Shown here piece after piece: positions 10,664 to 21,390 of a DNA stretch of 64,000 nucleotides (positions are counted from its first letter, which is position 1; every line of letters begins with the position of its first letter). The notes below the pieces were generated by a model. The model did not search any database and had not been told where the DNA came from. It saw only the letters and a program-made list of their open reading frames with translations. A program made the position numbers and the translations under genes. This DNA is from Escherichia coli. GTDB lineage: Bacteria; Pseudomonadota; Gammaproteobacteria; Enterobacterales; Enterobacteriaceae. The stretch is taken from the NCBI RefSeq assembly GCF_046105845.1, contig NZ_CP151004.1; one strand, 5' to 3'.

Positions 10664-12601
10664 TCAGTAACGACGTCCCCATTCCGTGGCGCTCATCAAT
10701 GTCGGTTTATCCCCCATGAAATAGCGGTAGTAAGCGTCATAAGCCAGCACGTTCTTCACATAACCGCGCGTCTCGGAGAACGGAATACTCTCGACAAATG
10801 CCACTGCGTCGATACGCCCGGCGCTGTTGCCAAGCCAGGTTCGCACCCGTCCTGGTCCGGCGTTATAAGCTGCTGAGGAGAAAATACGGTTATTACCAAA
10901 CTGCTGATAAACATATTGCAGGTAACTGGTGCCAATGTTGATGTTTGTTTCCGGATCCAGCAATTGCCCAGGGCTGCTATAACCGGGAATAGAGAACATC
11001 TTCACCGTATGGGTCGCTGTACCCGGCATAATCTGCATCAGGCCGCTGGCCCCTACCGGTGATTTCACTTTCGGATTCCAGGCGCTCTCCTGACGGGCAA
11101 TCGCCATCGCATAGCTTTGCGGGATCTCCTTCCCACTGGTGTAACGTTTGAAAAGATCGTTGTAAGCCAGCGGGAATCGCTCTTCCAGATGATCCCATAG
11201 CTTCCCGGCGATCGTTGCCTGAACGCTAAGATCCCACCATTGGTTATTGAAAGCATACCGAGCCAGTTGAGCCTGCTCTGTTTTTGACTTGCTCTTCACC
11301 AGATTGGCCCACTCGCTACGCGCGGTATTATCGAGATTCCAGTACATCAACTCGCGCACGCGCGCCATCTCCGGCCCCTGAGTCAGGGCGCTGTCAACAT
11401 TCTGCGGCGCTTTATCAATCTTCAGCTCATACTCTTCGCCGATGCGTTGTGCTGCAACCATCGGGTAGAAACCACGCTGTTGCATGAGTTGATGCAAAAT
11501 CTCTTTTGCTTCAGCTTCACGTCCGCGTTCCAGCAGTAAATCCGCCTGCCAGTAACGCCATTCATCTTTCTCTTTCGCCTCCATCGGCAAACGCGCCAGC
11601 CAGGTATTCAGGCCGCGACGATCGCCGGTGCCAAGCGCCATTCGCACACGGCGTTCAATAAGCGAAGTAGATTGCGAACGCATAATGGCGTCATCACGCC
11701 ATTTCGCCTGTTCGTCGGTGACATCGTTGCCCATCAAACGCCAGGCGACGATATCGCGCAGCTCCTGAATCTGATCTTCATTAAGCTGCTGCGCCTGGGC
11801 AAGCGACGGGATCATCAGCCGTGCATTTTCAGCATCCTGCCGAGCCACACTGGCAAACGCCACCGCCGCCATTTGACGGGTAAAATCGGTCGCTCCGGTT
11901 GTACGCGCGAAGGTCAGTACCGTATTAGGGTTGTTCGCCAGTGAAATGATTGCCGAGGCGATAGTCTGGTAATCGGCAGGCATCTGCCCTGCCAGCACTG
12001 TTACCAGGCCAGTGTTACCCGCTTTCATCGCCAGACGGATACGCTCTAAATACGCCAGCGGATCTTGTTTACCTGACGCACGCCAGACGCTAAATAACTT
12101 GTCACAGGCGTTAGGCTGGCTCTTGCCGGTTAGCCACAGCTCTTTCGCCCCTTGCCAGGCTTCTTCACTCTGCCCGGTATTCCATTTCGCATAGTAGTAA
12201 TTACATTGCGCTTCGGTAGTTCCGGGCTTTTCCGGGCTAAAGGCTAACAAGCCACGCCAGTCTTCACGCCGCGCCAGTTCATTGACGAAACGAGATTGCA
12301 GCGTGCGAGCGGGAGGAAGCGTGGGGTTAGCGCGAACAAAGTTAGTGACCGTCACCGCCGGTTGATTCATCAGGTCATCGGTGATCTGACGGTATTCCAG
12401 GTAGGGATAAAGTGGATAATCCTTCAGTCCAGGCATCATTTGTTCGACCACATCCATTTGTCGATTATCCCAGGCCTGCTTGATTTGGGCGTAGCGGCTA
12501 CGCTGCTCATCCAGTGAGTCGGCTCGCGCCACGCTGCTGACCGTCAGCAGACAGACACCGGCAGCCAACAGCCGCCAGGTAACGTGTTTGGCTTTTTCCA
12601 C
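10664..12601 (-). CDS. slt: Soluble lytic murein transglycosylase Slt70 (645 aa, GTG start)
   Basis: ORF track 10664..12631; start set at GTG giving ...EKAKHVTWRLL signal peptide and 645 aa. Confidence 0.88.
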   Translation of the reverse strand: MEKAKHVTWRLLAAGVCLLTVSSVARADSLDEQRSRYAQIKQAWDNRQMDVVEQMMPGLKDYPLYPYLEYRQITDDLMNQPAVTVTNFVRANPTLPPARTLQSRFVNELARREDWRGLLAFSPEKPGTTEAQCNYYYAKWNTGQSEEAWQGAKELWLTGKSQPNACDKLFSVWRASGKQDPLAYLERIRLAMKAGNTGLVTVLAGQMPADYQTIASAIISLANNPNTVLTFARTTGATDFTRQMAAVAFASVARQDAENARLMIPSLAQAQQLNEDQIQELRDIVAWRLMGNDVTDEQAKWRDDAIMRSQSTSLIERRVRMALGTGDRRGLNTWLARLPMEAKEKDEWRYWQADLLLERGREAEAKEILHQLMQQRGFYPMVAAQRIGEEYELKIDKAPQNVDSALTQGPEMARVRELMYWNLDNTARSEWANLVKSKSKTEQAQLARYAFNNQWWDLSVQATIAGKLWDHLEERFPLAYNDLFKRYTSGKEIPQSYAMAIARQESAWNPKVKSPVGASGLMQIMPGTATHTVKMFSIPGYSSPGQLLDPETNINIGTSYLQYVYQQFGNNRIFSSAAYNAGPGRVRTWLGNSAGRIDAVAFVESIPFSETRGYVKNVLAYDAYYRYFMGDKPTLMSATEWGRRY

Positions 12602-12811
12602 AAGCGCATCCTCTAAGTGTAAATACATCAATGCAGCGTCTTGCCGCGTAATAGATTTATGCTAACCAGTCATTGCCGTTTACGCCACGTTACGGACACT
12701 TTTTTACTTTTATCGGGAGGGTGATCGACCGGCTGGGATTAGATAAGGAAACAGGCTACACTTCGCCTTTGAAAACTCATTATCACGATAAACATAGAGG
12801 CGAAGTCCAAC

Positions 12812-14479
12812 GTGGCTCAATTCGTTTATACCATGCATCGTGTCGGCAAGGTTGTTCCGCCGAAACGTCATATTTTGAAAAACATCTCTCTGAGTTTCTT
12901 CCCTGGGGCAAAAATTGGTGTCCTGGGTCTGAACGGCGCGGGTAAGTCCACCCTGCTGCGCATTATGGCGGGCATTGATAAAGACATCGAAGGCGAAGCG
13001 CGTCCGCAACCGGATATCAAGATTGGTTATCTGCCGCAGGAACCGCAGCTGAACCCGGAACACACCGTGCGTGAGTCCATTGAAGAAGCGGTTTCTGAAG
13101 TGGTTAACGCCCTGAAACGCCTGGATGAAGTGTATGCGCTGTACGCCGATCCGGATGCCGATTTTGACAAGCTGGCCGCTGAACAAGGCCGTCTGGAAGA
13201 GATCATTCAGGCTCACGACGGTCACAACCTGAACGTTCAGCTGGAGCGTGCGGCGGATGCGCTGCGTCTGCCGGACTGGGACGCGAAAATCGCTAACCTC
13301 TCCGGTGGTGAGCGTCGTCGCGTGGCGTTGTGCCGCCTGCTGCTGGAAAAACCAGACATGCTGCTGCTCGACGAACCGACCAACCACCTGGATGCCGAAT
13401 CCGTGGCCTGGTTGGAACGCTTCCTCCACGACTTCGAAGGCACCGTGGTGGCGATTACCCACGACCGTTACTTCCTTGATAACGTTGCAGGCTGGATCCT
13501 CGAACTGGACCGCGGTGAAGGTATTCCGTGGGAAGGCAACTACTCCTCCTGGCTGGAGCAGAAAGATCAACGGCTGGCGCAGGAAGCTTCACAAGAAGCT
13601 GCGCGTCGTAAGTCGATTGAGAAAGAGCTGGAGTGGGTACGTCAGGGAACTAAAGGCCGCCAGTCGAAAGGTAAAGCCCGTCTGGCGCGCTTTGAAGAGC
13701 TGAACAGCACCGAATATCAGAAACGTAACGAAACCAACGAACTGTTTATTCCACCTGGACCGCGTCTGGGCGACAAAGTGCTGGAAGTCAGCAATCTGCG
13801 TAAATCCTATGGCGATCGTCTGCTGATTGATGATCTGAGTTTCTCGATCCCGAAAGGGGCGATCGTCGGGATCATCGGTCCGAACGGTGCGGGTAAATCG
13901 ACGCTGTTCCGTATGATCTCTGGTCAGGAACAGCCGGACAGCGGCACCATCACTTTGGGTGAAACGGTGAAACTGGCATCGGTTGATCAGTTCCGTGACT
14001 CAATGGATAACAGCAAAACCGTTTGGGAAGAAGTTTCCGGCGGGCTGGATATCATGAAAATCGGCAACACCGAGATGCCAAGCCGTGCCTACGTAGGCCG
14101 CTTTAACTTTAAAGGGGTTGATCAGGGTAAACGCGTTGGCGAACTTTCCGGCGGTGAGCGCGGTCGTCTGCATCTGGCGAAGCTGCTGCAGGTTGGCGGC
14201 AACATGCTGCTGCTCGACGAACCAACCAACGACCTGGATATCGAAACCCTGCGCGCGCTGGAAAACGCCCTGCTGGAGTTCCCGGGCTGCGCGATGGTTA
14301 TCTCGCACGACCGTTGGTTCCTCGACCGTATCGCCACGCACATCCTGGACTACCAGGATGAAGGTAAAGTTGAGTTCTTCGAAGGTAACTTTACCGAGTA
14401 CGAAGAGTACAAGAAACGCACGCTGGGCGCAGACGCGCTGGAGCCGAAGCGTATCAAGTACAAGCGTATTGCGAAGTAA
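12812..14479 (+). CDS. ettA: ABC-F translation factor EttA (YjjK), 555 aa, GTG start
   Basis: ORF track; two ABC ATPase domains with Walker A GLNGAGKST and GPNGAGKST. Confidence 0.95.
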   Translation: MAQFVYTMHRVGKVVPPKRHILKNISLSFFPGAKIGVLGLNGAGKSTLLRIMAGIDKDIEGEARPQPDIKIGYLPQEPQLNPEHTVRESIEEAVSEVVNALKRLDEVYALYADPDADFDKLAAEQGRLEEIIQAHDGHNLNVQLERAADALRLPDWDAKIANLSGGERRRVALCRLLLEKPDMLLLDEPTNHLDAESVAWLERFLHDFEGTVVAITHDRYFLDNVAGWILELDRGEGIPWEGNYSSWLEQKDQRLAQEASQEAARRKSIEKELEWVRQGTKGRQSKGKARLARFEELNSTEYQKRNETNELFIPPGPRLGDKVLEVSNLRKSYGDRLLIDDLSFSIPKGAIVGIIGPNGAGKSTLFRMISGQEQPDSGTITLGETVKLASVDQFRDSMDNSKTVWEEVSGGLDIMKIGNTEMPSRAYVGRFNFKGVDQGKRVGELSGGERGRLHLAKLLQVGGNMLLLDEPTNDLDIETLRALENALLEFPGCAMVISHDRWFLDRIATHILDYQDEGKVEFFEGNFTEYEEYKKRTLGADALEPKRIKYKRIAK

Positions 14480-14489
14480 TGCGTAAAAT

Positions 14490-14521
14490 GCCGGATGCGG
14501 CGCGCCAGCATCGCATCCGGT
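14490..14521. repeat. REP-like palindromic unit downstream of ettA
   Basis: gccggatgcg ... cgcatccggt inverted repeat typical of REP consensus. Confidence 0.5.
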
Positions 14522-14634
14522 ATTAGTTAAATGATGAGTCCCCGGAAAAAAGCAAAATTTTCTTTAAGCGTATTAGCTCAGATGCGGACTGACACCTCAA
14601 ATCAAGCGGGAACTCATGGTTCCCGCTTAACGTT

Positions 14635-15522
14635 TTATTCACCGCGCAGGATCTGGCGGAAATGGGAAACCAGCGGACGTTGGTTGGCTTTATGCCAGGC
14701 TGCCCATAATTGCGTTGAATAATTCATCCACGGCAATTCACGTAATACCACCCCTTCCGGCGCATTATGACGCAGACTATGTTGAATTAAGGCCAGACCT
14801 AATCCCGCAGCGACCAGACCTAATGCCGTGAGTGGTTCACCCGCTTCCAGGCGAATATCAGGATTAAACCCGGCATTAACACAGGCGGCGACAAAATGAT
14901 CGCGAGAATGCGCATCGTCGTTATGAATCACCGCAATCCACTGCTCATCGCCAAGTTGTGACGCGACAAGGTTTTCCTCCTGCGCCAGAGGATGATTTTG
15001 CGGTAAGGCCAACAACATTCGATCATCCAGAACCTGAATATATTCCAGACCCTGCTCGCTGTCGGTGGGCGGCGTATCGACCAGAGAAAAATCGAGACTG
15101 CGCTGGCGAAGGCCTTCAATCTGGGTCGCCGGTGGTTGGCTGTAAAGTGCGATATGCACATTCGGACGCGATACACGTAACGTACGTAGCGCCGTAGAAA
15201 GCACACCGGAATGCATGGCGTTTTCGATATAGCCAATACACAAGCCACCATCTTCCCCCCGTCCCAGGCGTTTGCCTAACGACTCCAGACGGTTGGCGTG
15301 TGTCAGCAATGAACGTGTTTCGGCAAGGAATGTCTGTCCATCAGCGGTCAGGCGAATGCGCTGCTGATTACGCTCAAACAGCGTCAGCCCCAGCCGTTCT
15401 TCCAGTTGTGCAATCTGGCGGCTCAGCGGTGATTGCGAGATATGTAATCGCTCGGCTGCGCGTCCCACGTGCTCTTCTTCTGCGACCACCACGAAGTACT
15501 TCAGTTGGCGTAAATCAATCAT
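14635..15522 (-). CDS. LysR-family transcriptional regulator (296 aa)
   Basis: ORF track 14635..15615; start at MIDLRQLKYFVVVAEE (LysR HTH signature); divergent from the oxidoreductase genes. Confidence 0.8.
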   Translation of the reverse strand: MIDLRQLKYFVVVAEEEHVGRAAERLHISQSPLSRQIAQLEERLGLTLFERNQQRIRLTADGQTFLAETRSLLTHANRLESLGKRLGRGEDGGLCIGYIENAMHSGVLSTALRTLRVSRPNVHIALYSQPPATQIEGLRQRSLDFSLVDTPPTDSEQGLEYIQVLDDRMLLALPQNHPLAQEENLVASQLGDEQWIAVIHNDDAHSRDHFVAACVNAGFNPDIRLEAGEPLTALGLVAAGLGLALIQHSLRHNAPEGVVLRELPWMNYSTQLWAAWHKANQRPLVSHFRQILRGE

Positions 15523-15655
15523 GTTAGACCTCAAAGGACTTAAGTCAGACGAATTATGTCCTATCAAGTCACAACCTCGCAAGGTATTGTGATCCACGTC
15601 ACAGGGCGATAGCAAAAAAACGCCCTAACCCAAACCGAATAATTGAGGACATCTT

Positions 15656-16666
15656 ATGAGCATCAAAAATTTACTTCCCGGCAAAATTGGCTTAGGCGGC
15701 GCACCACTCGGCAACATGTTCCGTGCCATTCCAGAAGAAGAGGCCCACGCCACCGTGAGCGAAGCCTGGAACCTGGGCGTGCGTTACTTTGATACCGCGC
15801 CGCTGTACGGCTCTGGCCTTTCTGAAATCCGCATGGGCGAAGCGCTGTCTCAGTATCCACGCGATGAATACGTTCTGAGCAGCAAAGTCGGCCGCATCAT
15901 GCTGGACGAAATGGAAGATCCGGCAAAACGTGATTTCGGTGAAAAAGGTGGCCTGTTCGAACACGGCCTGAAAAACAAAATTCTGAATGACTACTCTGCT
16001 GACGCCACGCTGCGCTCAATTGAAGACAGCCTGAAACGCCTGCAAACAGATCGTCTGGATATTGTCTGGATCCACGACCCGGCGCAGGACTTCTACGGTG
16101 ACAGCTGGCTGGAACAGTTCAACATAGCCCGTACCGGTGCGTTTCGTGCGCTGACGCGTTTGCGTGACGAAGGTGTGATTAAAGCCTGGGGACTGGGAGT
16201 GAATCGCGTCGAACCTTGCGAACTGACGCTGGCGCTGGACGAACCGAAGCCAGATGCTTTCCTGCTGGCGGGGCGTTATTCCCTGCTGGATCACGAACGT
16301 GCGCTGCAACGCCTGATGCCAGAAGCACTGGAACAGAACGTGGATATTGTTGTGGGCGGTCCGTACAGCTCTGGCGTACTGGCAGGCGGCGAGCACTTTG
16401 AATATCAGAAAGCTTCTGCGGCCATCCAGCAGAAAGTGGCGCAAATTAACACCATTGCCACACGTTTCAATGTGAACGTTAAAGCAGCTGCGCTGCAGTT
16501 CGCGCTGGCAAACCCGGCCGTTGCGGCGGTTATTCCTGGCTCCAGCCGTCCTGGCCGTATGGCAGAAGATCTGGCCGCACTGAATGCGCCTGTTCCGGCT
16601 GAATTCTGGGCAGAAATGCGCCGTCAAAATCTGGTTGCGGAAAACGCTCCGCTGCCGACCCGTTAA
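15656..16666 (+). CDS. Aldo/keto reductase family oxidoreductase (336 aa)
   Basis: ORF track; AKR fold hallmarks (FDTAPLYG, IVWIHDP). Confidence 0.8.
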   Translation: MSIKNLLPGKIGLGGAPLGNMFRAIPEEEAHATVSEAWNLGVRYFDTAPLYGSGLSEIRMGEALSQYPRDEYVLSSKVGRIMLDEMEDPAKRDFGEKGGLFEHGLKNKILNDYSADATLRSIEDSLKRLQTDRLDIVWIHDPAQDFYGDSWLEQFNIARTGAFRALTRLRDEGVIKAWGLGVNRVEPCELTLALDEPKPDAFLLAGRYSLLDHERALQRLMPEALEQNVDIVVGGPYSSGVLAGGEHFEYQKASAAIQQKVAQINTIATRFNVNVKAAALQFALANPAVAAVIPGSSRPGRMAEDLAALNAPVPAEFWAEMRRQNLVAENAPLPTR

Positions 16667-16685
16667 TCAACCTGGTGAGAAAACG

Positions 16686-17483
16686 ATGAAACTGGATCTG
16701 ACAGGTAAAGTCGCGGTGGTCAGCGGCTCAACCTCCGGCATTGGGCAGGGTATCGCCGCCGGACTGGCAAAAGCAGGCGCAACGGTGGTTGTCGTCGGCC
16801 GTAAACAGCGCGGCGTTGATGATGCCATGGCTGCGATTGCGGCACAAACTCCCACGGCGTCACTGCGCGGCGTGGTGGCCGATCTCAGCACCGAAGACGG
16901 CGTGGCTGCGCTGATCGCTGCAGTCCCAACGGCTGATGTGCTGGTCAATAATCTGGGCATTTTTAACGATAAAGATTTCTTTAGCGTTCCGGATGATGAG
17001 TGGATGCACTTCTATAACGTCAACGTCCTCTCCGGCGTTCGTCTGGCGCGTCACTATGCGCCAGGCATGACGGAACAGGGCTGGGGGCGGATTATCTTTG
17101 TCTCGTCTGAATCCGGCGTGGCAATTCCTGGCGACATGATCAACTACGGCGTCACCAAAGCCGCGAATCTGGCGGTTTCTCATGGTCTGGCGAAACGACT
17201 GGCGGGGACCGGTGTGACTGTCAACGCCATTCTGCCAGGGCCAACCTTTACCGATGGCCTGAAAGAGATGCTGGCGGATGCCGCTGCACAGTCGGGACGC
17301 AGTGCGCGTGAACAGGCCGATGAGTTTGTTAAAACCTCGCGTCCGAGCTCCATCATCCAGCGTGCGGCAGATGTGGAAGAAGTGGCGAATCTGGCGGTTT
17401 ATCTCGCGTCACCGCTTTCCTCGGCAACCACAGGGGCAGCCCTGCGCGTCGATGGCGGCGTCGTCGACACCCTGACAATGTAA
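16686..17483 (+). CDS. Short-chain dehydrogenase/reductase (SDR) family oxidoreductase
   Basis: ORF track 16584..17483; start at MKLDLTGKVAVVSGSTSGIGQ (Rossmann TGxxxGIG motif). Confidence 0.8.
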   Translation: MKLDLTGKVAVVSGSTSGIGQGIAAGLAKAGATVVVVGRKQRGVDDAMAAIAAQTPTASLRGVVADLSTEDGVAALIAAVPTADVLVNNLGIFNDKDFFSVPDDEWMHFYNVNVLSGVRLARHYAPGMTEQGWGRIIFVSSESGVAIPGDMINYGVTKAANLAVSHGLAKRLAGTGVTVNAILPGPTFTDGLKEMLADAAAQSGRSAREQADEFVKTSRPSSIIQRAADVEEVANLAVYLASPLSSATTGAALRVDGGVVDTLTM

Positions 17484-17508
17484 CCCTATAAATTAAGAGA
17501 AAATTATC

Positions 17509-17925
17509 ATGGCTAAAACAACTGTATCGATCGAAATTCCGGCTTCTGCCGACGCCGTATGGCAATTGATGGGCGGCTTTGATGCGCTGCCAGACTGGCT
17601 GCCGTTCATCCCGAAAAGCGTAGTGACAGAAGGCGGTCGCGTTCGTTCGCTGACAACCTCTGACGGCGGCACTGTGGTTGAACGTCTGGAAGCGTTTGAT
17701 AACCGTCAACGCAGTTATACCTATTCCATTATTCAGGCACCGTTCCCGGTGGTGGATTACCTCTCCACCATTACCGTTCATGAAACCACCGACAGCCAGG
17801 TTTCCCGTGTGGAATGGTTCGGTGAATTCACCCCGGTGAATGTGACGAACGAAGAGGCCGAGGCGCTGTTTACCGGCATCTATCGGGATGGTCTCAAGGC
17901 GCTGAAGGACAACTTTGTTGCCTGA
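17509..17925 (+). CDS. SRPBCC (Bet v1 / polyketide cyclase-like) small protein, 138 aa
   Basis: ORF track; size and composition typical of SRPBCC ligand-binding proteins; family assignment by recognition only. Confidence 0.55.
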   Translation: MAKTTVSIEIPASADAVWQLMGGFDALPDWLPFIPKSVVTEGGRVRSLTTSDGGTVVERLEAFDNRQRSYTYSIIQAPFPVVDYLSTITVHETTDSQVSRVEWFGEFTPVNVTNEEAEALFTGIYRDGLKALKDNFVA

Positions 17926-18082
17926 TGCAATCGACAGGCGTCGGAACGTCCGGCGTCTGATTATTAACAAAAGCAGAATAGTCTATTGTCATTTGTATCA
18001 TTTATGTTATCAGGCAGCAGGCGTATTCTCTCCCCATCGCGTTAATAAACGCCAAACAATTAAGACACTCTGGAATATAAAC

Positions 18083-18295
18083 ATGAAAACGATCATCGCA
18101 ATTTTTACAGCTTCTCTTTTCTCTGTCGCGGCGTTTAACGCATCGGCGCAAAGCGTGACAGCAACCGGTACAACACTGGATTCTGCGGAAGCAGTTATTG
18201 CGCAGAAAGCGAAAGAGATGAACGCCTCTGAATATAAAATTACCAGCGCTCGCATGGGCAATACCGTCACCATGAGTGCCGAACTGTATAAATAA
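18083..18295 (+). CDS. Small secreted DUF1471 (YdgH/BhsA/McbA-like) protein, 70 aa with signal peptide
   Basis: ORF track 17915..18295; start at MKTIIAIFTASLFSVAAFNASA signal peptide. Confidence 0.55.
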   Translation: MKTIIAIFTASLFSVAAFNASAQSVTATGTTLDSAEAVIAQKAKEMNASEYKITSARMGNTVTMSAELYK

Positions 18296-18343
18296 TCGCG
18301 CGAGGGACCCATTACGTAATTTGCTAAATATGCGCTGAATGCG

Positions 18344-18568
18344 TTGCCATTAATAAACCGTATTGTAATGCCACCGATGACGCGTTCCCGCGCGGGTGAC
18401 GTTGCGACTGACATGATGGCGGACTATTACGCGCAGCGCGCCAGTGCAGGACTATCATCAGCGAAGGTACGCAAATCAGCAGAAGCGCTGCGCATAATTT
18501 TCCACGGCACGCTGATTTACTCCGGTAAATACACCAAAGCGCGCGCCGAAGCGGACTGTCAGATTTGA
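18344..18568 (+). pseudogene. Remnant of an Old-Yellow-Enzyme / NemA-like FMN oxidoreductase gene (N-terminal about 45 codons, then frameshift and stop)
   Basis: VMPPMTRSRAGDVATDMMADYYAQRASAGL resembles the NemA N-terminus (..FMAPLTR...LMAEYYRQRASAGL) as I recall it; the next residues continue in another frame (LIISEGTQIS). Confidence 0.4.
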
Positions 18569-18754
18569 TTGCATTTTGGCTACGCAACCGGTCAGTTGGA
18601 GTATGAAGTTGCTCACGAATAGCCTTAGCATCCGCAATTTCGTAGTGGGTCACCCGTGCAGGTTCTTTCTAATCTCAACAGCCTCTTCCAGAGAGGTTTT
18701 CAACTCATCAAAAAAACTCAATTTATACCTCGCCTTTGAGCCGTTTCGTCACGG

Positions 18755-19987
18755 TTATCTTTGCTCCCCCATCATCTCCCGCACAAGTTCCACGCAGCGC
18801 AGGAAACGGCTGTCGTAATCGTCCTCTTCAACACGCACAAATTCGATATTGTTCTCTTCCAGCATCTCCACCAGCAAGTTCTGGAACTCTTTGCGATCCA
18901 CCGAACTACCGAGGCTGCGTAAACCATCCGCCACCCACGGGGTGTTGTTCTCCAGCAAGATAACCAGATCAAAACGGTATTCATCAATCAGCGCCTGCAC
19001 GAACGGATGCTCACGCCCTTCGTACTTTTTGCAGAACGCCTGGGTAGTGACAAAATCAGTGTCGATAAACGCCACTTTATTGGCGTATTTCACTGCAAAA
19101 TCAATATATTGCGCGTGTCCTAGCGCGATTTTATCGTAGTCGGAATACTGCAATGCGATCTCATCACCGCCGAGGTGTGAAAAGACATAATCGCGACCAT
19201 ATTCCCACGCACTGGTAGTGTTGAAGATATTAGCAAGCTTGTTTACCAGGGTGGATTTACCGCTCGACTCGCCGCCAAGGATCGCCACGGTACGCACAAA
19301 AAACGGCTTCACTTCAGTGGGGATATATTCCCAGTAGCGGAACGGGTTTTCGCGGATCTGCGCACCGCTGATACTCATAAAGGTACGCTTCGGATCGACC
19401 AGCACCGTCTCGATCCCCAGATGTTCCATATACTGTGGCGCATCGGCTTCTTCCGAGGTGTAGATCAGGTCCGGCTGGATCCCCTTTTCAGCCATAAACT
19501 TTTTGATGCCGTTGCTCCACACATCCCAGCCGTGCGGATATGGCTCCATGCCCTCTTCGTTGAAAGCATGAATACGGATATTTTTCTGATATTTAAAGGT
19601 TTGCAATAACCAGCGCAGACGATCCGGCACCGTGGGCTGCTGCGACATGGCGCTGTCTTCAAACAACGCACGGTCACGGGTATCGTCAAAGCCCATAATG
19701 ATATGCAACTCGTCAACCTGGCTACAGGCGCGCTGGATAAGGTAGATATGTCCGGTATGCAACGGGTAGAACTTACCGAATACCACGCCAATGGTTTTCT
19801 TTTGGCGGGGAAACTCAAGCCCCAAAAAACGGTGCAATGCCTCCAGTTTTTGCGCGCTGGGGCTTTTAATTTTGGCATTCAGTAACTGGCTTAAATACCC
19901 TTTGGTCATACCGCTGGCATCAGCTACCTGCTGTAGCGTGCAGCCCTGTTGCTTAATGGCAGTTTTCAGGTAATCAAATGACGACAT
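18755..19987 (-). CDS. nadR: Trifunctional NAD biosynthesis regulator NadR (410 aa)
   Basis: ORF track 18755..20008; start at MSSFDYLKTAIK; HTH plus NMN adenylyltransferase plus RNK domains. Confidence 0.9.
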   Translation of the reverse strand: MSSFDYLKTAIKQQGCTLQQVADASGMTKGYLSQLLNAKIKSPSAQKLEALHRFLGLEFPRQKKTIGVVFGKFYPLHTGHIYLIQRACSQVDELHIIMGFDDTRDRALFEDSAMSQQPTVPDRLRWLLQTFKYQKNIRIHAFNEEGMEPYPHGWDVWSNGIKKFMAEKGIQPDLIYTSEEADAPQYMEHLGIETVLVDPKRTFMSISGAQIRENPFRYWEYIPTEVKPFFVRTVAILGGESSGKSTLVNKLANIFNTTSAWEYGRDYVFSHLGGDEIALQYSDYDKIALGHAQYIDFAVKYANKVAFIDTDFVTTQAFCKKYEGREHPFVQALIDEYRFDLVILLENNTPWVADGLRSLGSSVDRKEFQNLLVEMLEENNIEFVRVEEDDYDSRFLRCVELVREMMGEQR

Positions 19988-20007
19988 ATCTCCCTCCGTA
20001 TCTCTCA

Positions 20008-21390
20008 TTATAAGTCGTCGAACACGCTAAGCGCGTCGGAGAGTTTTTTAACGCCAAAAATCTGCATCCCTTCCGGCGCTTTTTTCGGCACGTTAGCCGC
20101 CGGAACAATCGCCCGCCGAAAACCATGTTTCGCCGCTTCTGAGATACGTTCCTGGCCGCTGGGCACCGGGCGGATCTCCCCTGCCAGCCCGACTTCACCA
20201 AACACCACCAGATCCTGCGGCAGCGGTCTGTCGCGCAGGCTGGAAACCATCGCCAGCAGTAACGCTAAGTCGGCGCTGGTTTCGGTTACCTTCACGCCGC
20301 CGACCACGTTAACAAATACATCCTGATCGGCCATTTGCAAGCCACCGTGACGGTGCAGCACCGCCAGCAGGATTGCCAGACGGTTTTGCTCCAGCCCCAC
20401 TGCCACGCGGCGTGGGTTCGCCATCATCGAGTGATCGACCAATGCCTGAATCTCCACCAGCAGCGGACGCGTTCCTTCCCACACTACCATCACTGAGCTA
20501 CCGGAGGTCACTTCATCACCGCGGCTTAAAAAGATGGCGGAAGGGTTGCTAACTTCACGCAGCCCCTGTTCGGTCATCGCGAAGACGCCCAGCTCATTCA
20601 CCGCGCCGAAGCGGTTTTTATGGCTGCGCAAGGTGCGAAAACGGGAGTCGGCATCGCCATCCAGAAGCACCGAACAGTCGATACAGTGTTCCAGCACTTT
20701 AGGGCCAGCCAGCGAGCCATCTTTGGTTACGTGCCCAACCATGACAATCGCCACGCCGCGCGTTTTGGCGAAGCGCGTCAGATAAGCCGCCGTTTCACGC
20801 ACCTGCGCCACGCTGCCAGGCGATGACTGAACATCCGCCATATGCATCACCTGGATGGAGTCAATTACCATCAGCTTCGGTTGCTCTTCTTCGGCAATCA
20901 GGCAGATCTGCTCGATGCTGGTTTCCGACAACATATTGAGATTGTCAGTCGGCAGGCCAAGGCGATGAGCGCGCATTGCCACCTGTTGCAGCGACTCTTC
21001 GCCAGTGACATACAGCGTTTTCATCTGCTGCGCCAGTTTGCACAGCGTTTGCAGCAACAGCGTGGATTTCCCCGCACCTGGGTTACCGCCAATCAGAATG
21101 GCGCTTCCCGGCACCACCCCGCCGCCTAATACGCGGTCGAACTCTTTAAATCCGGTGGAAAAACGCGGCAGCTCTTCAAGGCTGATATCGGAGAGTTTCT
21201 GGACTTTTGCCACCCCGGCGCTACCGGCATAGCCACTGAGACGCTCGTTACGCGCCACCGTTGGCGACGCTGCAAGACGCACCTCGGTGATGGTGTTCCA
21301 GGCATGACAGGCACTGCACTGCCCCTGCCAGCGCGGATAATCGGCCCCGCATTCATTACAAACAAAGGCGCGTTTTGGAGCTTTTGCCAC
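20008..21390 (-). CDS. radA: DNA repair protein RadA/Sms (460 aa, GTG start)
   Basis: ORF track 20008..21438; zinc finger CNECGADY, RecA-like Walker A GGNPGAGKST, Lon-like C-terminus. Confidence 0.9.
   Translation of the reverse strand: MAKAPKRAFVCNECGADYPRWQGQCSACHAWNTITEVRLAASPTVARNERLSGYAGSAGVAKVQKLSDISLEELPRFSTGFKEFDRVLGGGVVPGSAILIGGNPGAGKSTLLLQTLCKLAQQMKTLYVTGEESLQQVAMRAHRLGLPTDNLNMLSETSIEQICLIAEEEQPKLMVIDSIQVMHMADVQSSPGSVAQVRETAAYLTRFAKTRGVAIVMVGHVTKDGSLAGPKVLEHCIDCSVLLDGDADSRFRTLRSHKNRFGAVNELGVFAMTEQGLREVSNPSAIFLSRGDEVTSGSSVMVVWEGTRPLLVEIQALVDHSMMANPRRVAVGLEQNRLAILLAVLHRHGGLQMADQDVFVNVVGGVKVTETSADLALLLAMVSSLRDRPLPQDLVVFGEVGLAGEIRPVPSGQERISEAAKHGFRRAIVPAANVPKKAPEGMQIFGVKKLSDALSVFDDL

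Follow-up and report, generated by a model that had tools for sequence, protein, structure and literature searches.

What occupies the junction between ettA and nadR in this Escherichia coli sequence, what might its genes do, and how did they come to be there? In the window (the whole stretch of DNA analyzed here, 64,000 nucleotides), open reading frames and Pfam matches place six elements in this interval of about 4 kb: lysR, genes for an aldo/keto reductase (AKR), a short-chain dehydrogenase (SDR), an SRPBCC protein and a DUF1471 protein, and an old-yellow-enzyme (OYE) remnant. A preliminary description had listed the same six, and each lies where that description had placed it.

Gene content of the ettA-nadR interval

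The features are as follows.

12812-14479, + strand: ettA, left core flank (ORF; annotated ettA in matching E. coli records)
14533-14567, - strand: remnant of the 3' end of nadS (HigA-like antitoxin), with an 11-bp deletion (alignment to the final codons of nadS in locus L002, where the gene is intact and encodes 94 aa)
14576-14594: left copy, GCTCAGATGCGGACTGACA, of an imperfect 19-bp direct repeat (repeat family D9)
14604-14628: GC-rich hairpin/terminator at the lysR 3' end (terminator scan)
14635-15522, - strand: LysR-type transcriptional regulator, 295 aa (Pfam HTH_1 E 2e-24, LysR_substrate E 5.5e-39)
15523-15655: divergent regulatory region, with a conserved dyad GGACTTAA-N10-TTATGTCC at 15536-15561
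15656-16666, + strand: AKR, 336 aa (Pfam Aldo_ket_red E 7.8e-45)
16686-17483, + strand: classical SDR oxidoreductase, 265 aa (Pfam adh_short_C2 E 2e-44)
17509-17925, + strand: SRPBCC (helix-grip) protein, 138 aa (Pfam Polyketide_cyc2 E 3.8e-30)
18083-18295, + strand: DUF1471 (YdgH/BhsA/McbA family) small protein, 70 aa (Pfam E 2.5e-11, 43.9 bits)
~18314-18548, + strand: OYE-family ene-reductase pseudogene (alignment with the intact 365-aa gene of locus L005)
18543-18561: right copy, GCGCCGAAGCGGACTGTCA, of the imperfect direct repeat (family D9)
18607-18721, - strand: 5' part of nadS, a pseudogene with a 10-bp deletion and start ATG changed to TTG (match to L002 and K-12 nadS)
18755-19987, - strand: nadR, right core flank (ORF; annotation in near-identical records)

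Near-identical E. coli records carry the same list of genes in their PGAP annotation, with OYE and the nadS fragment flagged as pseudogenes. The preliminary description had mentioned neither the two nadS ends nor that the OYE remnant is chiefly a product of deletion. As it had stated, lysR is transcribed divergently from the oxidoreductase genes. The gaps are 19 bp between AKR and SDR and 25 bp between SDR and SRPBCC, and these genes would form a three-gene operon, for which a promoter scan returned no convincing sigma-70 promoter. The DUF1471 gene is probably a separate transcription unit because a 157-bp gap precedes it. Its product has weak NCBIfam matches to BhsA, RclB and YhcN and, read directly from the sequence, an N-terminal signal-like sequence, MKTIIAIFTASLFSVAAFNASA; it is predicted to be a small secreted (periplasmic) protein.

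The closest solved structures to the LysR protein are 7w06, BenM, CatM and CbnR. It shares with BenM/CatM/CbnR-type regulators the domain architecture, the divergent layout and an operator-like dyad near its own start, but falls below the family cut-offs (AlsR, 222 bits against 430; BenM, 108 against 600). The dyad at 15536-15561 is a candidate LysR box. It occurs once within the 64-kb window; 73 distinct intergenic sequences, spanning E. coli to Pseudomonas, retain the operator-like block, and in 72 of 79 loci ATTATGTC stands at a fixed spacing from the start of lysR.

Relatives of the cassette and its possible function

Conservation of the lysR/AKR-SDR-SRPBCC core extends across Gammaproteobacteria, in 70+ loci from Enterobacterales, Acinetobacter and Pseudomonas that share no further conserved neighbour. 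Janthinobacterium and Paraburkholderia (Burkholderiales) and Streptomyces have LysR, AKR and SRPBCC at 53-75% identity; none of the Streptomyces, Burkholderiales or Bacillus versions includes SDR. In Bacilli an AKR-SRPBCC pair lies beside an HxlR-family regulator and OYE, or beside a second AKR and TetR, and association of OYE with the cassette recurs in both Enterobacterales and Bacilli. No experiment or paper on the cassette was found in the literature.

The catalytic motifs are intact in AKR (DTAPLY, SKVG and WIHDP being present) and in SDR (GSTSGIG, NNLG, S140/Y154xxxK158), whose closest PDB entries are 8g9m (E 1.5e-137) and 3t4x (E 1.3e-70). Streptomyces, Bacilli and Burkholderiales have homologues of the AKR with 72-76% identity. 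The AlphaFold model of the SRPBCC protein (pLDDT 90) resembles ligand-binding helix-grip proteins. In Foldseek it matched Bacillus cereus XoxI (3cnw; 62% identity, TM 0.95) and then plant PYR/PYL abscisic-acid receptors (20-28% identity, TM ~0.8-0.87). By function, its closest analogues are receptors rather than enzymes. XoxI and B. thuringiensis Q6HG14 (3f08), which has the helix-grip fold as well, are structural-genomics entries without assigned function, and PYLs act via PP2C phosphatases, whereas the islet has no PP2C. Finally, the intact OYE relative is a classical SYE1/NemA/PETN-reductase-type ene-reductase. The remnant had earlier been called NemA-like, a label not supported as worded: the intact relative resembles Shewanella SYE1 more closely than it does NemA, to which it is 48% identical.

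Our best guess is that the cassette specifies a pathway that is inducible, depends on NAD(P) and has a hydrophobic carbonyl or enone compound as its substrate. LysR would bind the candidate dyad adjoining its own start codon and, with a small organic inducer, activate the AKR-SDR-SRPBCC operon. AKR and SDR, both NAD(P)-dependent, might convert carbonyl groups in a hydrophobic small molecule to alcohol (or lactol) groups and back, and the helix-grip protein would bind, deliver or isomerise this molecule; the ancestral OYE would have reduced an activated C=C in the same enone or enal. The outcome might be the processing of an electrophilic natural product for protection, rather than a growth pathway. 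A role towards reactive carbonyls or electrophiles is plausible, because the Bacillus-type relatives adjoin HxlR and OYE genes. In E. coli, the NemR-NemA-GloA and YqhC-YqhD-DkgA units likewise place a dedicated regulator beside NAD(P)H-dependent OYE/AKR reductases and are small units without a transporter. They differ in having TetR and AraC regulators, in belonging to the core genome and in lacking an SRPBCC or SDR partner, and the islet AKR is in another branch than theirs (best NCBIfam match YdjG, 72 bits against a cut-off of 550).

In morphinan metabolism, an AKR, a Bet v 1-fold isomerase and an OYE cooperate on enones. In poppy, NISO (Bet v 1-fold) works with codeinone reductase (AKR), and in Pseudomonas putida M10 morphine dehydrogenase (AKR) works with morphinone reductase (OYE). 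The AKR, helix-grip and OYE folds are those of the islet, and the conversions run between allylic alcohol, enone and saturated ketone; the parallel is an analogy of folds only and implies no alkaloid link.

The AKR itself might point elsewhere. Its branch is L-galactose / D-threo-aldose dehydrogenase-like, and its best solved-structure matches are plant L-galactose and bacterial D-threo-aldose (L-fucose) 1-dehydrogenases, the plant L-galactose dehydrogenases being nearest in the PDB (E 1.9e-29). The nearest characterised relatives are aldose 1-dehydrogenases, which convert aldose hemiacetals to lactones, and not carbonyl reductases; JGI and some NCBI records automatically name the protein D-threo-aldose 1-dehydrogenase. 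This kinship and the JGI name therefore point in a direction away from carbonyl detoxification. The islet could then be a catabolic or salvage module. The AKR would work as an NAD(P)+-dependent lactol/aldose 1-dehydrogenase, in the manner of the enzymes for L-galactose, L-fucose or D-threo-aldose; SDR would carry out the second oxidation, LysR would sense the substrate and the products would enter metabolism. The place of LysR within the BenM/CatM/CbnR-like group of catabolic regulators would fit, as would the sorbose reductase and hydroxybutyrate dehydrogenases among the SDR relatives. However, the likeness to the L-galactose dehydrogenases is concentrated in the N-terminal GxAPLGN...FDT(A/S)PxYG region (~50% identity over the first 72 residues), with only ~30% identity beyond it and ~30-35% overall, and those dehydrogenases have no SRPBCC or LysR partner. 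Moreover, across 80 loci the cassette has no conserved transporter, lactonase, dehydratase, aldolase or kinase next to it; the partner is a helix-grip protein for hydrophobic ligands, and in Bacilli, Streptomyces and Enterobacterales the genes nearby encode HxlR-type regulators, OYE and additional AKRs. A catabolic module therefore seems rather unlikely.

Distribution and insertion site

The cassette is a real accessory element of E. coli. Its AKR-SDR-SRPBCC core was found in 482 of 5426 complete genomes (8.9%), each with one chromosomal copy, and the cassette is absent from K-12-type and toxin/nadS-type ettA-nadR junctions; the presence/absence check thus bore out the proposal that the islet is accessory. 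That ettA and nadR are adjacent in K-12, as the preliminary description had it, is essentially right: in the K-12 derivative XL1-Blue they are 307 bp apart, and a 55-aa nadS is the sole gene between them. The alternative junction, represented by L002, carries an intact HigB/HigA-like RelE/ParE toxin and nadS pair. The window has lost the toxin gene of this module through a deletion whose endpoints match those in K-12, and its nadS is both split and frameshifted; the module has no part in islet function.

Both ends of the disrupted nadS flank the islet. The 5' part, labelled by PGAP 'NadS family protein, frameshifted, incomplete', matches L002 nadS at 88% and, over a stretch including nadR, K-12 nadS at 92%. 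With nadS fragments present on either side, the insertion point lies inside this orphan antitoxin gene. The left copy of the direct repeat sits within a 36-bp segment (14568-14603), and homology to islet copies at other loci (L005, L006) starts at the adjoining hairpin, the left boundary of the transferable unit. An empty-site allele was looked for and none was found.

Alternatively, the islet might be ancestral to E. coli at ettA-nadR, with most lineages having deleted it, instead of having entered a single lineage. Among E. coli carriers the islet has diverged as deeply (dS 0.03-0.10 for LysR, AKR and SDR) as the flanks (0.05-0.15), no integrase, tRNA or IS was found associated with the islet in the window, and the suggested comparison of GC content showed no difference between the islet (0.539) and the flanks (0.536 and 0.542). 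But nadS is split with both ends left, while other strains have it intact with its toxin; carriers make up only 9% of genomes; and a near-identical unit with the same ends stands at two unrelated loci, after yhiN in a cryptic Escherichia clade and in the ghrB/bisC region of E. whittamii, with no accompanying mobility genes. These copies differ by dS of only 0.05-0.09 (LysR, AKR, SDR), against 91-93% identity of core DNA. Taken together, an ancestral islet is distinctly improbable.

Selection and distal decay

The LysR, AKR, SDR, SRPBCC and DUF1471 genes were intact in every copy examined or sampled as an annotated record. Within E. coli, dN/dS was ~0.03-0.1 for LysR (0.03-0.09), AKR and SDR; across genera, up to Pseudomonas, it was ~0.03-0.1 for all four core genes. 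The value for SRPBCC within E. coli (0.1-1.0) was noisy because it reflects 2-5 substitutions only, and the SRPBCC and DUF1471 comparisons there comprised only 1-6. These ratios show that the islet is kept by purifying selection, with only the last gene decayed, and its dS, comparable to that of the flanks, points to long residence in E. coli.

That last gene had been described as frameshifted. It is indeed dead, but not merely by a frameshift. Compared with the intact L005 gene, the start codon is lost (ATG to ACG), codon 2 has become a stop (TTA to TAA), and there are a 6-bp deletion, an internal deletion of 686 bp (L005 10833-11518) and a 3' truncation; a 1-bp deletion is private to this window. 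An N-terminal fragment (18314-18480) and a C-terminal fragment (18481-18548) are left, and the remnant scores 26.6 bits for Oxidored_FMN (cut-off 27) and E 4.7e-11 for the NCBIfam N-ethylmaleimide reductase. It is mainly a deletion product. Alignment with the GNAT-bearing locus L004 identifies the 18548/18549 junction as the scar of a deletion of ~740 bp, which took away a GNAT gene together with the 3' end of OYE. The GNAT-bearing variant persists in 20 genomes, the gene being deleted in ~96% of carriers. E. coli and E. whittamii each lost OYE independently, and most non-enteric versions lack it, so it is not an obligatory step. Decay is limited to the distal end, namely OYE, the GNAT gene in most carriers and the interrupted nadS; to this extent the earlier phrase 'undergoing decay' stands, but it does not extend to the five other genes.

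A functionless hitch-hiker in slow decay could explain the at least five OYE lesions, the loss of GNAT and nadS and an IS1397 inserted next to lysR in one strain, but it is very improbable, since neutral decay over the time implied by a dS matching the core flanks should have brought frameshifts and dN/dS near 1, as in the adjacent OYE, whereas the five remaining genes are intact and LysR, AKR and SDR constrained.

We lean, slightly beyond even, towards the explanation as a whole: a selected accessory islet inside nadS that serves the protective processing of an electrophilic natural product. The E. coli lineage lost the OYE step early and retained the remainder. As an element the islet is of an ordinary type; its core is uncharacterised and unusually conserved.

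Gene content of the ettA-nadR interval

The interval between ettA and nadR holds an islet made up of a LysR-type regulator gene, four intact genes transcribed divergently from it and a short remnant of an OYE gene. The gene list and coordinates of the preliminary description were borne out by ORF listing and Pfam.

Features of the ettA-nadR interval (window positions, strand, feature, basis)
12812-14479, +, ettA, left flank (ORF listing)
14635-15522, -, LysR-type regulator, 295 aa (ORF and Pfam)
15656-16666, +, aldo/keto reductase, AKR (ORF and Pfam)
16686-17483, +, classical SDR (ORF and Pfam)
17509-17925, +, SRPBCC/Polyketide_cyc2 protein (ORF and Pfam)
18083-18295, +, DUF1471 (YdgH/BhsA family) protein (ORF and Pfam)
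~18314-18548, +, short OYE-like remnant (ORF listing and Pfam)
18755-19987, -, nadR, right flank (ORF listing)

A LysR-type regulator is a protein of about 300 aa with an N-terminal HTH_1 and a C-terminal LysR substrate-binding domain, and both were found in the islet protein (PF00126, E 2e-24; PF03466, E 5.5e-39). It groups with BenM, CatM and CbnR. None of the named LysR equivalogs (AlsR, HcaR, BenM, CatM, OxyR and others) exceeded the NCBIfam cut-off, the best being AlsR with 222.5 bits vs 430; likewise, no named NCBIfam equivalog was assigned to any islet protein. The divergent region of 133 bp contains an intergenic block kept from E. coli to Pseudomonas, which includes, besides the lysR ribosome-binding site, the dyad GGACTTAA-N10-TTATGTCC. 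This dyad occurs only once within the 64-kb window and is the predicted operator. A promoter scan returned no operon promoter, scores not rising above the shuffled expectation.

The AKR and SDR genes are separated by 19 bp and the SDR and SRPBCC genes by 25 bp, and 157 bp lie ahead of the DUF1471 gene. Directly 3' of the SRPBCC stop codon, a hairpin with two G-U pairs, CAGGCGTCGG-AACGT-CCGGCGTCTG (17935-17959), was read from the sequence. It could form the end of an AKR-SDR-SRPBCC transcript, and was missed by the terminator scan because its T-tract is weak. An Rfam scan of 12500-20500 gave zero matches at E values up to 1.

Membership of the AKR superfamily was judged on the Aldo_ket_red domain (PF00248, E 7.8e-45) together with an Asp-Tyr-Lys-His catalytic tetrad; a motif search located D46 and Y51 (DTAPLY), K77 (SKVG) and H140 (WIHDP), which we take to be the tetrad, as in AKRs generally. 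Classical SDRs are defined by a TGxxxGxG cofactor motif, an NNAG motif and Ser-Tyr-Lys catalytic residues. The islet SDR has GSTSGIG at residue 14, NNLG at residue 88, S140 and Y154xxxK158, matches Pfam adh_short and adh_short_C2, is near-identical to the unannotated structure 8g9m and is related to 3t4x of B. anthracis.

The third protein belongs to the SRPBCC superfamily (PF10604, E 3.8e-30), whose helix-grip fold packs a long C-terminal helix against an antiparallel sheet. Its predicted model (pLDDT 90) has a beta-sheet and a C-terminal helix at 114-137, and reaches TM 0.95 to 3cnw. The model superposes on B. cereus XoxI and B. thuringiensis Q6HG14, both without assigned function, with abscisic-acid receptors next; a literature search on XoxI returned only unrelated matches. 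Among the invariant residues of the SRPBCC protein are the polar or aromatic S37, R44, R46, E58, Y70, Y72 and Y84. The DUF1471 protein falls within the YdgH-BhsA-McbA family of small secreted proteins (PF07338, 43.9 bits vs a cut-off of 27) and has a signal-like N-terminus, read directly from the sequence. Compared with the named equivalogs BhsA, RclB and YhcN, it reached none of the NCBIfam cut-offs.

Distribution in E. coli and decay of the OYE gene

The AKR-SDR-SRPBCC core was found in 482 of 5426 complete E. coli genomes (~9%), in one copy per genome and never on a plasmid; the whole ettA-nadR interval was likewise covered to at least 80% in 482 genomes. The best E. coli matches to the window had 98.8-99.1% identity, and carriers include O145:H28 STEC as well as human, animal and environmental strains. 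Other genomes have alternative junctions. The K-12 type has only the 55-aa nadS between ettA and nadR. A second type (L002, 2556-3174) has an intact toxin-first pair, comprising a 110-aa RelE/ParE-family toxin and a 94-aa NadS (HigA-like) antitoxin. Approximate frequencies, taken from identity bands, make the K-12-like junction the commonest by far and place the toxin/nadS type in several hundred genomes. The islet is therefore an accessory gene set, as the preliminary description had proposed, and not a set of genes present at this position in K-12 and all E. coli. In one carrier, E. coli strain 2900, a copy of the IS3-family element IS1397 lies between ettA and the islet lysR (L088, 1601-2949).

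The same description had the cluster undergoing decay. This holds for the OYE gene, which is heavily decayed, but not for the LysR, AKR, SDR, SRPBCC and DUF1471 genes. Across the six E. coli copies and the orthologues of eight further genera that were compared, the four core genes had no frameshift or stop, and PGAP gave all five genes as intact in every inspected record. By the Nei-Gojobori method, dN/dS was about 0.03-0.1 for LysR, AKR and SDR in every comparison, as it was for SRPBCC between genera; within E. coli, the values for SRPBCC and DUF1471 are noisy, with 1-6 substitutions only. Decay of the whole cluster was therefore rejected. Among E. coli carriers, dS of LysR, AKR and SDR (0.03-0.10) matched that of ettA, nadR and radA (0.05-0.15), which implies a long residence, and over the same residence time the neighbouring OYE gene gathered multiple lesions.

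A functional OYE gene would be an intact TIM-barrel ORF of ~365 aa. The remnant keeps about 55 N-terminal and 23 C-terminal codons and scores 26.6 bits in Pfam, below the cut-off of 27. The islet unit of a cryptic-clade Escherichia (L005), in which core DNA is ~92% identical to that of E. coli, has an intact 365-aa OYE gene. With this gene as reference, five lesions were common to all examined E. coli copies: the start ATG is changed to ACG, codon 2 is changed from TTA to the stop TAA, 6 bp are deleted, 686 bp are deleted internally, and the 3' end is truncated. A simple frameshift as the cause of the loss was rejected on these lesions; the window copy has one extra 1-bp deletion. Shewanella SYE1 was the best match of the intact protein (E 2.8e-138), with NemA behind it (~1e-101), so that NemA was rejected as its nearest relative. 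What had been described as a frameshifted NemA-like remnant is thus a multi-lesion deletion product of a gene nearer SYE1. The E. whittamii copy (L006) keeps its start codon and has a different internal deletion, of 638 bp, so OYE was lost twice independently.

A longer variant of the islet was found in 20 genomes. It has 55 more bp of genuine OYE 3' sequence and a gene for a GNAT acetyltransferase of 182 aa, placed between the OYE remnant and nadS (L004, 5727-6275) and missing from the cryptic-clade and E. whittamii copies. Alignment indicates that the window type derives from this variant by a deletion of ~740 bp at CGA(A) microhomology.

Insertion into nadS and relocation among Escherichia

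The islet splits nadS: the last codons of the gene lie at ~14533-14567, and the first ~38 at 18607-18721. K-12-type genomes and islet carriers have the same 395-bp deletion of the toxin gene, with identical endpoints (L002, 2870|3266), so toxin loss is older than insertion of the islet. The insertion is bracketed by an imperfect 19-bp direct repeat (14576-14594 and 18543-18561). The flanking segments 14568-14603 (36 bp) and 18549-18606 (58 bp) occur only in islet-bearing E. coli and have the imperfect repeat GC(T/G)C(A/C)GA(T/A)GCGGACTG(A/T)CA in common; they may derive from a donor, from a nadS allele that has diverged or from an att-like duplication. No empty site with the immediate flanks of the islet joined was found among complete E. 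coli genomes, and no intact ORF resulted when nadS was reassembled from these flanks with no, one or two copies of the repeat.

Repeats are also seen elsewhere at the junction. A REP-like palindrome, AATGCCGGATGCG...CGCATCCGGTATT, lies directly after the ettA stop codon (14487-14524) and is also present in the toxin/nadS-type junction. In the K-12 derivative XL1-Blue (L003, 2350-2500), the 3' half of the 55-aa nadS ORF enters REP/BIME-like elements, which stand in place of the antitoxin's original C-terminus; the tail of K-12 NadS (…VVDRKRCSRRIRHSVLNA) is thus repeat-encoded. Expression of nadS in K-12 was reported in a 2025 paper. The ettA-nadR junction is thus variable in content and has a degraded toxin-antitoxin locus as its basis.

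The shared unit is ~4.8 kb long; one end is the terminator hairpin of lysR, and the other lies a few bases beyond the OYE stop codon. Three sites are occupied: in E. coli the unit interrupts nadS, in the cryptic clade it follows yhiN, and in E. whittamii it lies in the ghrB/bisC/xylB region. Compared with E. coli, the islets of the other two have a dS of only 0.05-0.09 in LysR, AKR and SDR despite a core DNA identity of 91-93%, which indicates transfer between Escherichia species. A classical genomic island has an integrase or other mobility gene, a tRNA or att site and deviant composition, and the islet does not qualify as one. No integrase, transposase/IS or tRNA was found in or associated with the islet, whose flanks offer only the imperfect 19-bp repeat, and a compositional test for foreign origin found it no different from its flanks (GC 0.539 vs 0.536 and 0.542). 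Beside the cryptic-clade islet (L005, 12523-16971) lies an ORF of 1482 aa with DUF4011, AAA_11/AAA_12 helicase, MTES_1575 restriction-endonuclease-like and DUF3320 domains. The ORF resembles a defence gene and had no DNA match among complete E. coli genomes.

Relatives in other genera and possible function

A scan of one genome per species gave 571 loci with close AKR relatives. Judged on the 80 loci retrieved from these, lysR/AKR-SDR-SRPBCC is kept in E. whittamii, Trabulsiella, Yokenella, Yersinia, Klebsiella/Raoultella, Providencia, Serratia, Ewingella, Acinetobacter and many Pseudomonas, and identity across these gammaproteobacterial loci is 75-77% for AKR and ~70% for LysR. Xenorhabdus has lysR and AKR only. 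Clustering of flanking ORFs of the 80 loci revealed only Pseudomonas-specific synteny and no neighbour common across genera. The DUF1471 gene, alone or together with OYE, is an enterobacterial addition; the DUF1471/OYE pair of Trabulsiella odontotermitis lies on the opposite side of lysR.

Outside Gammaproteobacteria, AKR is 72-76% identical in Janthinobacterium, Duganella, Paraburkholderia, Streptomyces, Bacillaceae and Paenibacillaceae. LysR/AKR-SRPBCC without SDR was found in Streptomyces, Janthinobacterium and Paraburkholderia (LysR 63-67%, SRPBCC 53-63% identical), and AKR alone in Saccharopolyspora. One Gottfriedia genome has OYE, HxlR, AKR and SRPBCC genes in a row, and one Paenibacillaceae genome has AKR, SRPBCC and a second AKR with an adjoining TetR gene. 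The module also resides on large plasmids or chromids in Ewingella (full four-gene form), Burkholderia/Paraburkholderia, Cupriavidus, Streptomyces, Bacillus and many Rhizobium. At the Gottfriedia locus, a CAP12-PCTIR TIR-domain gene follows the AKR-SRPBCC pair (L091/L092, 6706-7740).

Literature searches on SRPBCC/polyketide cyclase with LysR, on D-threo-aldose 1-dehydrogenase and on NadS/nadR returned nothing on the cassette. The best-supported reading is that the islet is an inducible protective pathway, for which we infer a hydrophobic carbonyl or enone compound as substrate. It is favored because OYE, HxlR-family regulators and additional AKRs recur next to the module and no transporter or downstream catabolic enzyme accompanies it. 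The observation made in the preliminary description is confirmed and its interpretation supported in part. The main rival is a lactol- or aldose-dehydrogenase role for the AKR. Automatic annotation pipelines predict a "D-threo-aldose 1-dehydrogenase", and among characterised enzymes the AKR is nearest to plant L-galactose dehydrogenases (~50% identity in residues 1-72, ~30% in the rest); comparison with L-GalDH structures gave remote similarity only (E 1.9e-29).

It is also conceivable, although we consider it rather unlikely, that LysR, AKR and SRPBCC form an enzyme/binding-protein partnership spreading horizontally across phyla, with the helix-grip protein as the obligatory partner of the AKR (an isomerase, carrier or allosteric sensor) and the pair acting on one specific, widespread natural compound. 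The basis for this is the identity between E. coli, Burkholderiales and Streptomyces (AKR 72-76%, LysR 63-67%, SRPBCC 53-63%), the occurrence of the AKR-SRPBCC pair in Bacilli as well, and the presence of the trio on megaplasmids in many soil bacteria. If true, AKR-SRPBCC would be a new two-protein catalytic unit and not generic detoxification.

The islet is an ordinary kind of element, a LysR-controlled oxidoreductase islet, new only in being undescribed. Two aspects are mildly notable: the core trio is functionally uncharacterised and conserved across phyla to an unusual degree, and the islet has relocated among three chromosomal sites without mobility genes. For E. coli it is a small lineage-restricted trait, which could influence survival on particular plant- or host-derived chemicals, and the decayed OYE gene beside intact neighbours is a clean natural experiment on which parts of the cassette E. 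coli needs. More broadly, LysR, AKR and SRPBCC form a very strongly conserved and apparently unstudied trio common to Proteobacteria and Actinobacteria, with AKR-SRPBCC reaching Bacilli, and E. coli strains with the islet would be well suited to genetic searches for the inducer and substrate of this trio.
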